Shown here: positions 839-63,628 of the stretch, piece after piece
How positions within the stretch are numbered: the stretch's first letter is position 1
Layout of the letters: each line of letters begins with the position of its first letter
Source: Candidatus Parcubacteria bacterium
Lineage (GTDB): Bacteria; Patescibacteriota; Microgenomatia; UBA12405
Direction: 5' to 3'
Length of the DNA: 64,000 nucleotides
Assembly: GCA_023396915.1 (NCBI GenBank)
Contig: JAEWUV010000002.1
Span: 3,171 to 67,170, forward strand
Position numbers and translations under genes: made by a program
Notes under the pieces: generated by a model
What the model saw: only the letters and a program-made list of their open reading frames with translations
What the model was told of the DNA's origin: nothing
Database searches by the model: none

Positions 839-1480
839 TTACTGTAATGAGGTTAAATCGTCAATTACTGCCTTGATATCAGAAAATTCGAATCCTTGGC
901 GTAAAAGTGAAGAATAAAGTCTGTTTTTGGCTTTAAAATCTTTTAATAGTTTTTGGGTTACTCTTTTTTTAGTTAAAATTCTTTTAATTGATTCGATATC
1001 ATTAGTATTATTTAAATTTAGATTTGAGATATTTACTCCTTTTTGGGCTAATAAAAATTTTACCTGTTTGATTGATTTGTGGTGATTTTTGGCAATAAAA
1101 CTTTTTATAAAATCATCTTGATTAAGAAGTTTTTTTGCATTTAAATTGTCGATAATTGAGGTAATTATTGGGCTAAAATTAAAATTAGAAAAATATTTAT
1201 ATTTCTGGGATTTTTTTATAAAAAATATTTTTAATTTTTGAGAAATTATTTTTTCAGTTTTTGGAGAAATGGCTATCTGACGTAAAGCATACTCATTACC
1301 CAAATAAGACAGCGACGATTGAATTATTTGGGTAAATTTTTCTTCATCTATAGGTTGGCTTTTTTGAAGAGAAAGTTTGACAACATCATCAATAAAAAAA
1401 GGAAGATAGGAACCGTCAGAAAAAACTAGATTAACCCTATTTTTTATCCGACTGACTTTAATGTTGTTTAGGCTTAACAT
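839..1480 (-). CDS. recX: Recombination regulator RecX
   Basis: 213 aa immediately downstream of recA with overlapping stop/start; repetitive three-helix RecX-like repeats, C-terminus LLRQGFEFSDIKAVIDD. Confidence 0.75.
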   Translation of the reverse strand: MLSLNNIKVSRIKNRVNLVFSDGSYLPFFIDDVVKLSLQKSQPIDEEKFTQIIQSSLSYLGNEYALRQIAISPKTEKIISQKLKIFFIKKSQKYKYFSNFNFSPIITSIIDNLNAKKLLNQDDFIKSFIAKNHHKSIKQVKFLLAQKGVNISNLNLNNTNDIESIKRILTKKRVTQKLLKDFKAKNRLYSSLLRQGFEFSDIKAVIDDLTSLQ

Positions 1481-2568
1481 TATTCTTCTTCAGAGCCAGA
1501 AGAGGCTTTGGTAGTTTGTCCTGATTCAGCTTCGGCTTTGATTTTATTCCAAATATTCTGACGGTATTTGTCAGCAATTTTAGGATTATCCTTGAAATAT
1601 TTTTTAGCGGCTTCACGACCTTGGAGATTTTCATCGCCAACTTTAAAGAAAGCACCTGATTTGGTGATAAAACCGTGGGTAACGGCTAAATCAACTAAGC
1701 CACCGGTGGTAGAAATACCTTCAGTGTTCATGATATCGAATTCGGCTTCTTTAAATGGTGGAGCTACTTTATTTTTGATAATTCTAGCTCGGTGTTGAGA
1801 ACCAACAGCATCACCTGAACTGGTTTTGATGTTAGCAATTTTTCGTAAATCAATTCTGACAGAAGCATAGAATTTAAGAGCTAAACCACCAGGGGTCGTT
1901 TCGGGATTACCAAACATAATGCCAATTTTTTGACGAATTTGATTGGTAAAAATAACAACGGCTTTTGATTTAGAGATAGCCCCGGTAAGCTTACGTAAAG
2001 CCTGGGACATTAATCTGGCCTGAACACCCATCATTGAATCCCCCATTTCACCTTCAATTTCAGCTTTTGGAACTAGGGCGGCAACAGAATCGACAACTAT
2101 AACATCAACAGCATTAGATCGGACCAAAGTTTCAACTATTTCTAAGGCTTGCTCACCATTATCAGGTTGAGAAATTAAAAGATTGTCTAAATTGACACCA
2201 ACAGTGGCAGCGCGAGCTGGATCAAGAGCATGTTCGACATCAATAAAAGCACAGGTTCCACCCATTTTTTGGGCTTCAGCAATTACATGTAAACAAACAG
2301 TTGTTTTACCGGATGCTTCTGGGCCAAAAATTTCAGTAACTCTTCCACGAGGTAAACCACCAACACCAAGAGCAATGTCTAAAGGCAAACAACCGGTTGG
2401 AATAACTTCAATGGACATATCGGCCTGCTTGGCACCCATTTTCATAATGGCACCATCACCATAAGCTTTGGATATTTGTTCCATAGCAACTCTAAGAGCT
2501 TCGTTTTTTTGATCTTGGTTGGCACCGACAACGGCACCTTTTTGGACTTCTTTTTTCTTTCTTCCCAT
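1480..2568 (-). CDS. recA: Recombinase RecA
   Basis: Walker [11 protein letters not shown]2 loop [33 protein letters not shown]. Start placed at the internal Met (MGRKKKEV...); the ORF track's upstream Met at 2595 is a possible alternative. Confidence 0.95.
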
Positions 2569-37921: not shown

Positions 37922-38788
37922 TTAGAGAGATGTGGATGGAGTCACTGAAGAAGTGGCTGATTTTGTTGGAGTAATAGTAGTTTTTTTTGGTGAAATTGTT
38001 GCTGATTTTGTAGAAGGAGCAGTAACAATGGTTGGAGTTAAAGAACAAGCCATTTCGGTACAGGCAATAACGCCGGCTGATTGACAACTACAAGTGTTAC
38101 AACCGTCAGCAGATTTAAATGACTCCCCTATCTGATAAGTTTCTCCATTAAGTTCACAGACTTCCTGAGTAACAGCAGGAACACTGGTTGGGGTTACAGA
38201 GGAAGAATTTTGGGTTGATGGTTGATAGAAAAAGAGAAAATAAACCCAAAGACCGGCGACAATAAAAAATATAACCAAAGAAAGAATAAAAATATTTTTT
38301 AGACTATTTGGTTTTTTAGGTGGAGTGGTTGTTGAATCATCGGCTAAAATTTTGTCAATTTGAGCTTTGACTTCTTCTGGGCTTTTTGGGGATTCTTCTG
38401 GAGTATCAAGATTTTCCTTAGGTGGATTATAAACAGGTGGCAACTCATGTTTTTCGACGTCTGGTTGAACATCGGTTTTGGGTAATTCTTCGTTGGCTAT
38501 TCCTGGTTTATTTTCCGGAATGTCAGATGGGATTGATTGAACTTTATCCGGGGCTTCTAGTTGAGGGGAATTTATATCTTTTAATTTTATCTGTTCTTTT
38601 GGTGTAGTTTTGGATGAGATTTCTTTTAATTCGGCAGTTAGTTCCGACTCAGTGGTTACTTCTTTTGGAATTTCTTGAACTTCTATGTCTTCCGCTTTGA
38701 TTGAAGCAGCGGCTTGATCAAGAATTTTTTGGTAATCTTCACTATTGGCGTTATCGTTGGGTTGGTTTAGATTTTTATCATCATTCAT
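37922..38788 (-). CDS. Single-pass membrane protein with an acidic Pro/Glu-rich cytoplasmic N-region and a small Cys6 ectodomain resembling a VWC/chordin-type module
   Basis: TM IFILSLVIFFIVAGLWVYFLFFY. Ectodomain CELNGETYQIGESFKSADGCNTCSCQSAGVIACTEMAC. Confidence 0.5.
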   Translation of the reverse strand: MNDDKNLNQPNDNANSEDYQKILDQAAASIKAEDIEVQEIPKEVTTESELTAELKEISSKTTPKEQIKLKDINSPQLEAPDKVQSIPSDIPENKPGIANEELPKTDVQPDVEKHELPPVYNPPKENLDTPEESPKSPEEVKAQIDKILADDSTTTPPKKPNSLKNIFILSLVIFFIVAGLWVYFLFFYQPSTQNSSSVTPTSVPAVTQEVCELNGETYQIGESFKSADGCNTCSCQSAGVIACTEMACSLTPTIVTAPSTKSATISPKKTTITPTKSATSSVTPSTSL

Positions 38789-38851: not shown

Positions 38852-39334
38852 ATGAAGAAGCTTGTTTTTGTTATGGTGATGATGCTAGGTTTAGTATTGG
38901 TGGGGACTAAAGGAGCTTTGGCAAGTGGATTTAATCTTCAATCAATTGGATCAGTTAATACAAGCGGGCAGCAAATTTCTCATTGGTGGTACACAAACTC
39001 GAATCCGGTATTTTTGGGGGAGGCTCCATCAGGAAGCACAGTAAATGTCTCTGTCGACGGATCACAAGTGAGTGTAACGGCTGATGGAAATAATAATTGG
39101 AGTTATTCTACTGGTAGCTTAACTAGCGGTGATCATAGTGTGTCGATTTCGAATAATGGTTCGACTATAAACTTTACATTAACTATCGGTGCAGAAAATG
39201 TTGATTGGGATGCAGTAAATAGCGGAACAAGTGAAACACTACCGACAGTAGGAATTGTTATGCCGACAATTTTATTGTCTTCTAGTGGGTTGGGTTTATT
39301 GTTCGGAGCTAAACGATTGGCAAAAAAAGCTTAA
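38852..39334 (+). CDS. Secreted Ser/Thr/Asn-rich surface protein with a C-terminal sortase-type sorting signal (variant motif LPTVG)
   Basis: Signal peptide MKKLVFVMVMMLGLVLVGTKGALA. C-terminus ETLPTVG, then hydrophobic IVMPTILLSSSGLGLLFGA, then basic tail KRLAKKA. Confidence 0.55.
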   Translation: MKKLVFVMVMMLGLVLVGTKGALASGFNLQSIGSVNTSGQQISHWWYTNSNPVFLGEAPSGSTVNVSVDGSQVSVTADGNNNWSYSTGSLTSGDHSVSISNNGSTINFTLTIGAENVDWDAVNSGTSETLPTVGIVMPTILLSSSGLGLLFGAKRLAKKA

Positions 39335-41992: not shown

Positions 41993-42709
41993 TTATATCT
42001 CTATGGTGGCTTTGATGATCAGGCGGCGGAGATAAGTGCCGGGAGGGCTACAAGTAATTAAAGTTAAGGTTTTATTGTCGTAATGTTGTTCCAAAACAGA
42101 AAGGTCAGTAGGTTTTACTTCATACATTTCTTCAACCACATATTTATAGGTGGATTTATCGTAACGTAAAATAATTTCATCACCCTGTTCAAGTTTATAA
42201 AGAGTAGAAAAAATAGTTAAATAGTTTTTTGAACTAAAAAATTGAGGTAAAACTGAATGACCAAAAACAACAGTATTACCTAATTGCCCTGGTAAAGCTG
42301 TCTGAGGATATTGAATCAAACTTTTAGTTAAATCCATACTTCCCATAGTAACGATAGCGTCGGTAATTTTTAATTTTGGTATAGAAAGATAATAAGTTGA
42401 ATTATTACTGTCAATTGTCTGTCCAATTAAATTGGAGTTATTGGGTGAATTAACAAACCAATTTGATAATTGAGTGTAATCAACATTACTTTCGCCTAAA
42501 ACAGCTGATTGACTAAATGATTGCCCAGACAATGGATCAATAATTTGCTTAAATTTAGTGGAATAAGTTAGTTGAAATTTTACGATGGGAAAAAGTGCAA
42601 AAGTAAACAAAGAAATTCCAGTAAAGGCTAAAATACTAACGATGATTTTTTTTCGCTGGATAAGCTTGCTTTTTTTGGGTGGATCTTTTTTTAGGTAAAT
42701 ATAACTCAC
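41993..42709 (-). CDS. Sortase (class A/E-like transpeptidase)
   Basis: N-terminal TM anchor; catalytic His in VVFGHS; TLxTC motif TLTLITCSPPG followed by RR. Confidence 0.85.
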   Translation of the reverse strand: MSYIYLKKDPPKKSKLIQRKKIIVSILAFTGISLFTFALFPIVKFQLTYSTKFKQIIDPLSGQSFSQSAVLGESNVDYTQLSNWFVNSPNNSNLIGQTIDSNNSTYYLSIPKLKITDAIVTMGSMDLTKSLIQYPQTALPGQLGNTVVFGHSVLPQFFSSKNYLTIFSTLYKLEQGDEIILRYDKSTYKYVVEEMYEVKPTDLSVLEQHYDNKTLTLITCSPPGTYLRRLIIKATIEI

Positions 42710-61456: not shown

Positions 61457-63628
61457 TTATTTGGTAAGTATGAATCCGAGTCGCCACTCCATTTCACCTA
61501 AACCGTCACATTGAGCATCAATTGAAGCAAAGTGATATTCCCCACTTGAAGAATAGCATCGATATAAAGCGGTAGTTCCCGTAACTTGGTCTTGATAAAT
61601 CCAACCGGCAGTTCGTAGACGTGTATATCCACCTGAGGTACACTTACCGTCGCCAGTAAGAAGATAGTCAGCGTGACCCGACCAATTACCTACACATTCC
61701 TCGAGTTTTATGGAAGGATATGAAGGATCGGCCGCAGAAAGTACGTATCCCAAAGGTTTATCATAATTCCAAGCAGAACTGTCATTAATAACTGGACCAG
61801 AGGTGATGCGGTGAATACCATTACTATTGATCCAACTTGCAAGTTCATATCGAGGAGGTTGTTTAACAGTTGAAGTGCCTGGAGTTAACCATACATGGGT
61901 CATTACGAGATATTTTTTACTAAAATCGCCACCTGGTGGTAAATACATATATGTAAGTATGAAATGGTTACCAGAAAATGTGTTTGATCCATCGTCAGCA
62001 ATGATGCTTGGATACCCAAAAAGGTCAGTATTAGCGGGCCTAGTCCACGTTGGATCGTCAAAATATATGAGTGGATATTTAAGTTGAGTAAAAGTAACTT
62101 TGTCTGATGAAAAAACAAACACTGGACCATGATTTGAATAGCTAATACCAATTACTACATTTTGATCTTTCCAATAACCCATGTTGACCGCATTTGTTCC
62201 TGAAAGACTAGTTCCTACTCCTGATACAGGCAAACCCGACCAGCTTGAACCGTCCCAAACTTGCCATGAGGCAGGAGATAAATCTGATTTTGGTGCTCGG
62301 GCCACAATAGTATTCCATTCAGGACTTTCACGACGAACATACGCATAGACATAGGAATCATTACCATCTATGATGGTGCCATCACCAACCCCGGTGATTT
62401 TACCACTGGTAGGAGAGTCACTCCCAGTAAAAGCTTGTCCTAGGATAGACCAGGATAACCCGTTATCATATGATTTGCCGATTGCCACTGAATGATGTGA
62501 TTGTAGAATTGAATAATTGCAAGCAGTTTCTGAATGAATGAGTCCCCAAAGCGTGTCTCCATTTCGATATGTTGAAAGCAGCCAGTTTCCGCAGGACGAA
62601 TAAGAGCCTCCTTGGCCAGGGGAAATTACGGGTTTTCGTGTCCCGCTCATATCAAAAATGCTTGAACCATCTATGGCATAAGTAGTACTGTTGGCGGAAA
62701 AACCACGAAAGCGACCGTTACCGAGGGATATCTCATTAAAAGGTTGGTCTAATTCATCAACCCCGCCAGTACGAACAATGTAAGGCCGACCGATTAAGAC
62801 AGAAGTACAATTGGCACAAAATTGTGGAGAAGAAGGACTAGTAAGTGTTGGAGTATTTGTTTGGGTTAAAGCGATGGTAGGTATTCCATCAATTTCTCCC
62901 TCAAGTAAAGGAACTTCATCACTTTTTTGTAAATATGTTTTGAGCAAACTAGCATCAACTGAATTAATCTGACCATCAACATTTAAATCGCCTTTTTCTT
63001 GCAAAGCAGGGTTGTTAATTTTGGCGATATTTGTTTTTAATATTGAATAATCAACTGAATTTATTAATCCATTCTGTTCAATATCTCCCGGAATGAGTGG
63101 ATAGTTGGAAAAATCATAAATTTTGTCACTAGCCAAATCTAGATTACAAACACTAAAATCAGTTACATTCGTGGATTGATTGTTAACACAAAATTTAGCT
63201 ACTATATGAAAAGGTTCATCAATCCTTAAGTAATTAATGGTATTTACTGAATCAAAACTACTGTTTAATGTTAAATTTTCTACTATAAAAACTTGATCTC
63301 CAAATTGGTTAGTTACACCATTAACGGTGGTATACCCCACTCCGCTAATTAACTGATGTTTACCTGTAGTGATATTAACTACCTGGATATTAAATGTCTC
63401 TAATTTACTAAAATCACCAGATGGTGATACTCCTCTGAAAGCAAATTTAAAACTTATTTTTCTTTGTCCATTTTCAGCCGCACTACTTCTTTCATCTTGT
63501 TTTTGTTGAACTAGACTGATGGCTATTGGTAAAGAAATGGCTATTAAAAATATCACTAATAATGTAAAAATTTGTGAAAAACCTTTGTTATGAAACACAC
63601 TTAATCTAAGCATATTTAAACAGACCAA
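61457..63628 (-). CDS. Large secreted protein with tandem dockerin-type calcium-binding repeats and a downstream Asp-box (BNR)-containing domain
   Basis: N-terminal signal/anchor IFTLLVIFLIAISLPIAISL. Repeats DIEQNGLINSVDYSILKTNI and GDLNVDGQINSVDASLLKTYL. Asp-box SYDNGLSWS. Cys-rich C-terminus. Confidence 0.6.
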   Translation of the reverse strand: MVCLNMLRLSVFHNKGFSQIFTLLVIFLIAISLPIAISLVQQKQDERSSAAENGQRKISFKFAFRGVSPSGDFSKLETFNIQVVNITTGKHQLISGVGYTTVNGVTNQFGDQVFIVENLTLNSSFDSVNTINYLRIDEPFHIVAKFCVNNQSTNVTDFSVCNLDLASDKIYDFSNYPLIPGDIEQNGLINSVDYSILKTNIAKINNPALQEKGDLNVDGQINSVDASLLKTYLQKSDEVPLLEGEIDGIPTIALTQTNTPTLTSPSSPQFCANCTSVLIGRPYIVRTGGVDELDQPFNEISLGNGRFRGFSANSTTYAIDGSSIFDMSGTRKPVISPGQGGSYSSCGNWLLSTYRNGDTLWGLIHSETACNYSILQSHHSVAIGKSYDNGLSWSILGQAFTGSDSPTSGKITGVGDGTIIDGNDSYVYAYVRRESPEWNTIVARAPKSDLSPASWQVWDGSSWSGLPVSGVGTSLSGTNAVNMGYWKDQNVVIGISYSNHGPVFVFSSDKVTFTQLKYPLIYFDDPTWTRPANTDLFGYPSIIADDGSNTFSGNHFILTYMYLPPGGDFSKKYLVMTHVWLTPGTSTVKQPPRYELASWINSNGIHRITSGPVINDSSAWNYDKPLGYVLSAADPSYPSIKLEECVGNWSGHADYLLTGDGKCTSGGYTRLRTAGWIYQDQVTGTTALYRCYSSSGEYHFASIDAQCDGLGEMEWRLGFILTK

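Follow-up and report, generated by a model that had tools for sequence, protein, structure and literature searches.

A divergent LPXTG-type C-terminal signature, LPxxG-x3-PT, on candidate sortase substrates of the candidate phyla radiation

Among described systems, the one closest to the locus studied here is the LPXTG/sortase A system of Gram-positive bacteria (TIGR01167), which combines a signal peptide, a pentapeptide with fixed Leu, Pro and Gly that lies some 30 residues before the end of the protein, a hydrophobic segment and a basic tail with a membrane-anchored Cys/His/Arg sortase bearing a TLITC motif. All of these features recur in a 64-kb stretch of a Microgenomatia genome (contig JAEWUV010000002.1; hereafter the window), which corresponds to positions 393,721-457,720 of the 906,714-bp metagenomic scaffold ENA ERZ28596294 (35.5% G+C). 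There, a 160-residue immunoglobulin (Ig)-like secreted protein, here called the Ig protein, carries an LPTVG pentapeptide close to its C-terminus, and a sortase is encoded nearby (Table 1). An original prediction, made from the DNA alone, had named the Ig protein as a candidate sortase substrate. Unlike in the LPXTG/sortase A system, position 4 of the pentapeptide is Val or Ala rather than Thr, no hydrophilic spacer follows the Gly, and a Pro-Thr pair within the hydrophobic segment is nearly invariant; the window protein has no match to TIGR01167, and the window sortase lies below every NCBIfam class cutoff.

For Val at position 4 of the motif, we know of no natural precedent. Ala in place of Thr before the scissile bond is found in two surface proteins of S. 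aureus, which we take to be SasD and SasF, and LPAAG is the second-commonest form of the motif in our family. Among the 21 substrates of S. aureus sortase A, the natural occurrence of LPxAG in those two proteins (PMC3436756) is a rare exception, whereas in the signals described here Ala, Ser or Val is usual and Thr exceptional. In sequence, the window enzyme is most similar to class D and class E sortases (E-values of 3e-12 to 6e-7). These are housekeeping-type sortases with a single N-terminal anchor that accept non-canonical pentapeptides (LPNTA, LPQTGS, LAxTG). However, the window sortase reaches only 54-62 bits against cutoffs of 140-165, and the motif described here departs from the canonical form at position 4 but, in contrast to LAxTG, keeps Pro at position 2.

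Exosortase-type signals such as PEP-CTERM and VPDSG-CTERM (TIGR03778) are a further point of comparison. As in those systems, the motif abuts a membrane segment and occurs on several unrelated proteins clustered in operons with glycosyltransferases, and one body type found here carries VPDSG itself. Unlike in exosortase systems, no exosortase-like protein was found among 18 neighbouring proteins examined here, and the organisms lack an outer membrane and possess a sortase.

On the evidence set out below, the Ig protein is probably, although by no means certainly, a sortase substrate, and LPxxG-x3-PT a divergent sortase cell-wall sorting signal; its cleavage is a step that we infer.

The C-terminal signature and body of the Ig family

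Homologues of the Ig protein form 92 clusters of 41-100% identity, nearly all of about 150-180 residues, from Shapirobacteria and Woesebacteria; the source name, where given, is Candidatus Shapirobacteria. Their C-termini align without gaps, with L130, P131, G134 and P138 invariant or nearly so and T139, L142 and G146 conserved at 90% or more, and the linker just before the motif is variable. The tripartite C-terminus of LPTVG, hydrophobic stretch and KRLAKKA noticed in the original prediction is real and conserved. The three elements of a classical cell-wall sorting signal are all found, and at the usual spacing: in 63 of the 85 distinct C-termini with the full signature, the motif starts 31 residues from the end, and a basic tail (at least two Lys or Arg in the last eight residues) is found in 83 of 87 distinct C-termini.

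The pentapeptide itself is less constant than the surrounding pattern. It reads LPTVG in 50 homologues, LPAAG in 30, LPTAG in five, LPATG in two, and LPSAG, LPDAG and MPAAG in one each, so that T or A stands at position 3, and V, A or in rare cases T at position 4 (V 48, A 35 and T 2 in a count over the Ig family). A Pro-Thr pair four residues past the Gly is kept in 88 of the 92. Since positions 3 and 4 vary and Pro-Thr is nearly invariant, LPTVG is a local variant of LP[TA][VA]G-x3-PT, and the signature under constraint is LPxxG-x3-PT. It had been suggested that LPTVG would define the recognition motif of this lineage's sortase, a claim that does not hold in view of the orthologues that carry LPAAG, LPTAG, LPATG, LPSAG or LPDAG. 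LPTVG is best described as a Shapirobacteria-level variant of a divergent, uncurated LPXTG-type sorting domain. The best TIGR01167 score within the family, 14.9 bits against a cutoff of 15.9, belongs to the LPATG orthologues, which ties the position of the motif to that of the canonical LPXTG.

In its strict form, the signature did not lead beyond this family. A scan of GTDB genomes with a DNA pattern of [TA]LP[TA][VA]G-hhh-PT gave 90 matches, of which about 26 were true C-terminal signals, and since all of these came from the 160-residue Ig family, the strict form is family-specific and revealed no other substrates. In a six-frame scan of the window, no other real gene combined the C-terminal motif with an uncharged stretch and a basic tail, nor did 12 kb of added flanks on the same scaffold contain a further signal-bearing gene. 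A word-indexed profile search based on 41 aligned C-terminal residues matched no more than a single fragment and was not informative.

At the other end of the protein, the signal peptide proposed earlier was borne out on inspection by its n-h-c pattern and by residue A24 before the putative cleavage site, which is invariant in the family alignment, with G26 and F27 nearly so. The mature part (residues 25-133, 109 residues) consists of 53% Ser, Thr, Asn and Gly, is acidic and contains no Lys, Arg or Cys. In an AlphaFold2 model built on an alignment of 86 sequences (a single-sequence model with a predicted local distance difference test score, pLDDT, of 46 was discarded), the body is predicted to be one Ig-like domain followed by a linker of about 16 residues before the motif. 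The stretch 127-135, which includes LPTVG, has a pLDDT below 50 and is thus predicted to be flexible; modelled helices span residues 136-159, after the motif, and residues 2-17, inside the signal peptide. Ig-type matches are sub-threshold (Big_13, E-value 6.5e-5; Ca_tandemer, E-value 1e-6; Pfam and NCBIfam), and structural matches are to generic Ig/fn3 folds only. The best-conserved part of the family, above the core of the Ig domain, is residues 25-48 (38924..38995; SGFNLxSIGxVxTxGxQISHWWY), and this conserved mature N-terminus could be a binding or docking surface.

The body had been called Ser/Thr/Asn-rich, beta-type and pilin- or adhesin-like. Its composition and its predicted beta-sandwich agree with the first part of that description; the likeness to a pilin finds no counterpart in a generic Ig/fn3 fold without Lys. 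The Ig protein would nevertheless share with a sortase-polymerised pilin subunit its small size, secretion, Ig fold and sortase-type signal, and the best class score of the window sortase is to the class C model, though far below the cutoff. Lys is absent not only from the mature window protein but also from 18 of the 92 homologues, and there is consequently no conserved nucleophile of a pilin motif. Moreover, neither CnaA nor CnaB folds were among the structural matches, no tip or base pilin gene lies nearby, and the only sortase of the genome region lacks the additional membrane anchor that class C sortases typically have at the C-terminus. We therefore regard a polymerised pilin as very improbable.

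Records titled 'uncultured Gammaproteobacteria bacterium' carry a Shapirobacteria-type Ig gene as well (L011, L019, L020, L022, L025, L035, L041, L061, L070, L078 and L079; L numbers are our handles for loci) and, where the locus reaches far enough, a sortase at 68-76% identity too. The organism names of these metagenome-assembled genome records look wrong.

The signature on other protein bodies

A profile of 34 columns, made from the C-terminus only, was compared with 1.84 billion representative proteins and gave nine matches. Seven of these were members of the Ig family or fragments of them, and one was a repeat protein aligned only on 'ETLPTAG'. The remaining match (P0220, E-value 2e-4) has an unrelated Ser/Thr/Pro (S/T/P)-rich body that ends in ETLPSAGVGFPT and a hydrophobic segment. 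At the same locus (L098, 35% G+C), a paralogue ends in LPEAG and a hydrophobic segment, and both genes lie downstream of PilN- and PilO-like genes. A metagenome scan with P0220 and its paralogue yielded 40 loci. The ten-residue signature [L/V]Px[A/S/V/T]G-x3-PT, followed by a membrane segment, is found at the end of at least four more body types at 41 further loci. These look CPR-like (that is, like the candidate phyla radiation) by gene content, but DnaK proteins of L098 and the window genome share only 66% identity.

In type B, a conserved N-terminal anchor (ILAGVAVFTAIRLYQLRQ) precedes an S/T/P-rich body of 130-560 residues and LPxAG, usually without a basic tail. Type C comprises fn3 and Big_13 domains over about 440 residues and ends in VPDSG, LPQSG, IPVTG or TPETG with the tail KKSEI, while types D (274 residues) and E (234 residues) carry VPQSG and LPDAG, respectively. 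Across the other body types, position 4 is Ala in 26 cases, Ser in 12, Val in three and Thr in one, and the signature always lies about 29-36 residues from the stop. As a control, we asked where the core motif [LVIM]PxxGxxxPT falls: all 75 occurrences in Ig-family and second-family loci had the form of a C-terminal signal, as did one of 32 occurrences in 68 non-CPR loci preselected for encoding the motif. The motif is more than chance, and the recurrence of one signature on at least four other kinds of body marks the signal as a modular sorting domain.

Curated models place this domain nearest to LPXTG anchors. When 47 diverse C-termini were scanned against 18,950 NCBIfam models, TIGR01167 (LPXTG_anchor) touched nine of the 47 at an E-value below 1 and the model of the sortase-dependent family EF0750_LPXTG touched eight, all below cutoff, and LPXTG-type models were the only sorting-related matches in that scan. 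A separate earlier scan had one C-terminus touching PFE-CTERM (12.4 bits against a cutoff of 24, E-value 0.19); no other exosortase-type signal model, PEP-CTERM and VPDSG-CTERM included, matched the C-termini.

A conserved operon recurs in CPR-like loci (Table 1). It begins with PilN-like and PilO-like genes, a gene for a small membrane protein and one for an fn3 + Big_13 protein, continues with a protein of 400-500 residues (Pro-rich N-terminus, end HHxTLGW) and one to three S/T/P-rich proteins, and proceeds to polytopic proteins resembling GT-C, PMT_2 or chlor_Arch_YYY and often to an LCP protein; several members carry LPxxG-x3-PT. The operon looks like an assembly line for surface glycoproteins. 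S/T/P-rich proteins (L106 4997..5512, L111 6001..6456, L117 5995..7656 and about 35 others) join the strongly conserved N-terminal membrane anchor ILAGVAVFTAIRLYQLRQ..VAPTAP to a C-terminal LPxAG-x3-PT without a basic tail. With one end fixed in the membrane and the other perhaps joined to the wall, they could, speculatively, be membrane-wall tethers. Near the signal-bearing operon of L098 (17187..19012) lie two FemAB-family genes. FemAB-family enzymes build peptidoglycan interpeptide bridges, the usual sortase nucleophile, and these genes may hint at the acceptor of the sortase.

The window sortase and competing accounts of the signal

The original prediction had picked out the sortase by its TLITC and GHS motifs, and it is indeed a PF04203 member and the single sortase of the region. 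Across 120 homologues, the GHS, TLITC and RR columns are conserved at 90% or more (mostly at 98% or more), and H151, C220 and R228/229 are kept; the enzyme is a genuine sortase with its catalytic residues intact. Its class is less clear: it scores 61.6 bits against a cutoff of 160 for class C, 56-60 against 140-165 for class D, 54 against 160 for class E and 32 against 166 for class F, with class GN far below, so that it reaches no cutoff among the five matched NCBIfam class models, and no class A or class B model is among its matches. The nearest solved structure is 4d70 (E-value 3e-12), which we take to be the class D sortase SrtD of Clostridium perfringens; next come chains with a sortase family or class C annotation, together with 5go5 and 5go6, presumably class E sortases, down to an E-value of 6e-7. 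The sortase is far more widespread than the Ig protein, with 2459 matches, of which the best 120 are all at least 62% identical. This sortase family has been reported, with no substrates given, to be enriched in the CPR and near-ubiquitous in Microgenomates (Méheust et al., PMC6744442); other CPR genome papers note the presence of a sortase only.

Directly upstream of the sortase lies a gene for a membrane protein of 729 residues in the window and of 697-743 residues across six loci, overlapping the sortase start by 4 nt in L001, L005, L006, L099 and L100 and separated from it by 1 nt in L007. Its product crosses the membrane once, near residue 360, between a cytoplasmic N-terminal part and a large external one; the PDB holds no sequence match to it, and only a weak match to Baseplate_J (E-value 0.012) was found. 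The protein is probably co-translated with the sortase and may be its partner.

If the Ig protein is a sortase substrate, it would be exported by the Sec pathway and its signal peptide removed after Ala24, and its C-terminal hydrophobic segment and basic tail would keep it membrane-bound. The housekeeping sortase, itself anchored in the membrane and acting through Cys220, His151 and Arg228, would then cleave LPTVG between Val133 and Gly134 and pass the acidic Ig-like domain of about 11 kDa to a peptidoglycan precursor, which would fix it covalently close to the wall. As the same signal tags other surface proteins in CPR-like loci, the sortase would serve many substrates.

Genomic context and several properties of the signal weigh against this account. 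The distance of 2.7 kb between the Ig gene and the sortase gene, offered earlier as evidence, carries little weight and does not point to a dedicated operon, because the whole block is conserved housekeeping synteny: the order rpoC, rpoB, Cys-rich membrane protein, Ig gene, MiaB-like, YceG, a 65-residue gene, RuvX, sortase, membrane protein of about 725 residues, AlaRS and FtsK recurs in every relative with a contig long enough. Locus L100 keeps a sortase orthologue (63% identity) with the Ig gene absent at the site, so the sortase must have other substrates. Near the other signal-bearing operons, no sortase was found within 6-10 kb. As to the signal itself, the window Ig protein escapes TIGR01167; position 4 is Val or Ala, with Thr in only two of the 92 homologues; the hydrophobic stretch starts directly after the Gly, without a hydrophilic spacer; and the linker of about 16 residues from the Ig domain to the motif is short for a wall-spanning protein. 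P138, T139, L142 and G146 form one conserved helix face, and this conservation exceeds the constraint expected for a discarded anchor. Only four of the 42 other signal-bearing C-termini have a basic tail, most copies of types B, D and E being without one, and the Big_13 domain of type C is weakly related to the window Ig protein, so type C is not fully independent.

Several of these properties would suit a permanent type I membrane anchor that is never cut, with LPxxG-x3-PT acting as a juxtamembrane hinge or helix-packing motif, for example in oligomerisation or partner docking. A hydrophobic segment that begins immediately past the Gly, the conserved helix face, the short extracellular linker, the many related signals without a basic tail and the failure of the curated LPXTG model to recognise the window protein could all be read in this way. 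However, a permanent anchor leaves unexplained why the same ten-residue signature recurs on at least four other bodies at about 29-36 residues from the stop, as well as why the weak curated matches of the LPXTG scan are of the sortase type only; in addition, the model predicts a flexible, exposed motif region, which would fit a protease site. We consider an uncut anchor unlikely.

It could also be that the signal is cleaved by another, unrecognised sorting enzyme, such as an intramembrane protease encoded elsewhere, and that the neighbouring sortase has other substrates. Signals without a hydrophilic spacer are typical of intramembrane-protease cleavage and not of LPXTG (Haft, 10.1101/2023.06.07.544157), and the lack of a spacer together with the many copies lacking a basic tail gives the signature a resemblance to exosortase- and rhombosortase-type signals described there. 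The signal-bearing operons, in which no sortase was found, also hold conserved polytopic membrane proteins without a Pfam match, among them a type of about 545 residues. Against this, models of exosortases, archaeosortases, rhombosortases or rhomboids and CPBP proteases had no match among 18 proteins neighbouring signal-bearing genes (about 8% of the genome read); the neighbours match PMT_2, chlor_Arch_YYY or LA_3751-type glycosyltransferases or LCP, and several polytopic ones match GT-C or PMT_2 weakly. The C-termini are touched by LPXTG-type models, with the sub-threshold PFE-CTERM match as the one contact with an exosortase-type model, and no sorting enzyme other than sortase is known to be near-universal in the lineage (PMC6744442). 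A different enzyme thus seems rather improbable to us.

What stands of the proposal that the Ig protein is a sortase substrate is the conserved tripartite C-terminus, the signal on unrelated proteins of CPR-like loci, its nearest curated relatives among LPXTG anchors and a catalytically intact sortase in the genome; that the window sortase is the enzyme, with the cleavage site and acceptor named above, we can only infer. How strictly such an enzyme would read the pentapeptide can be gauged from the relatives: sortases 58-75% identical to that of the window accompany LPAAG, LPTAG and LPTVG forms, which implies that positions 3 and 4 are not strictly read.

Table 1. Positions of the features discussed, on the window unless a locus is named
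Feature	Position	Strand	Basis or remark
Gene of the Ig-like secreted protein, 160 aa (stop codon included)	38852..39334	+	Open reading frame list, translation, 92 homologue clusters
Sec-type signal peptide, residues 1-24 (MKKLVFVMVMMLGLVLVGTKGALA, followed by SG; MKK, hydrophobic core, ALA before SG; n-h-c)	38852..38923	+	Inspection
Single Ig-like beta-sandwich, residues 28-112 (predicted)	38933..39187	+	AlphaFold2, pLDDT about 90
LPTVG pentapeptide, residues 130-134	39239..39253	+	DNA cta ccg aca gta gga
Uncharged/hydrophobic segment of 19 residues (IVMPTILLSSSGLGLLFGA), residues 135-153	39254..39310	+	Sequence
Conserved Pro138-Thr139 within the uncharged segment	39263..39268	+	Family alignment
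Basic tail KRLAKKA, residues 154-160	39311..39331	+	Sequence
Sortase, 238 aa	41993..42709	-	PF04203, E-value 4e-27, 94.9 bits; TIGR01076, 60 bits against cutoff 39
Sortase N-terminal membrane anchor, residues 22-44	42578..42646	-
Sortase catalytic His151	42257..42259	-
Sortase catalytic Cys220 (TLITC)	42050..42052	-
Sortase catalytic Arg228	42026..42028	-
Membrane protein, 729 aa	42706..44895	-	Stop overlaps sortase start by 4 nt
PilN/PilO-type operon	L098 5754..12132; L106, L111, L112, L117, L121, L124, L134, L135, L137, L139 whole

Neighbouring genes and significance

Around the Ig gene, a scan for promoters and terminators gave nothing above background. Its divergent neighbour (37922..38788, minus strand) encodes a protein of 288 residues that combines an acidic N-terminal part and a single membrane segment with a Cys-rich module that matches Pacifastin_I (E-value 6e-9) and VWC (E-value 1e-5), domains mostly known from animals. 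Similar genes (258-447 residues) separate rpoB from the Ig gene in L005, L006 and L099 and adjoin rpoB in L100, where the Ig gene is absent, with the Cys-rich module itself seen in L006, L099 and L100. In L100 (12488..18113), four genes are inserted between the YceG and MiaB-like genes, including one for a secreted Cys-rich protein of 1067 residues; none of the four carries a sorting signal. Elsewhere in the window genome, three secreted proteins (61457..63628, minus strand; L143 2755..4365 and 925..2010, both minus strand) share the N-terminal sequence (L/I)(V/I)A(I/V)SLPIAxxLVQQxQxxRSSA, and dockerin-type matches, one of them faint, were found in two of the three. The shared N-terminus may act in targeting or processing, as a second N-terminal signal specific to the lineage.

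Taking the body types together, [L/V]-P-x-[A/S/V/T]-G-x3-P-T with its membrane segment could be an uncurated sorting domain widespread in the CPR, a proposal that we hold only tentatively. The proteins that carry it, including the Ig protein and the glycoprotein-like components of PilN/PilO operons, would then be the substrates of the near-universal Microgenomates sortase. Ala, Ser or Val would be admissible at the scissile position, and the site read by the enzyme would extend to the Pro-Thr in the membrane helix. In full-text searches of the literature on sortase together with CPR, Patescibacteria or Microgenomates, no description of the signal was found, and no substrate or recognition motif for the Microgenomates sortase is named in the searchable literature.

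The proteins described here are the first concrete candidate substrates for the near-universal Microgenomates sortase, and their signature is a testable motif. A direct and cheap biochemical test is opened by recombinant sortase and peptides containing LPTVG (SETLPTVGIVMPT), LPAAG or LPDAG, and a preference of the sortase for Ala or Val before the scissile bond, if true, would be of interest to protein-ligation chemistry. Standard LPXTG models miss these signal-bearing proteins. A defined signature would make it possible to catalogue surface-anchored proteins across thousands of uncultivated genomes and to identify the proteins at the cell-cell interface of these episymbionts.

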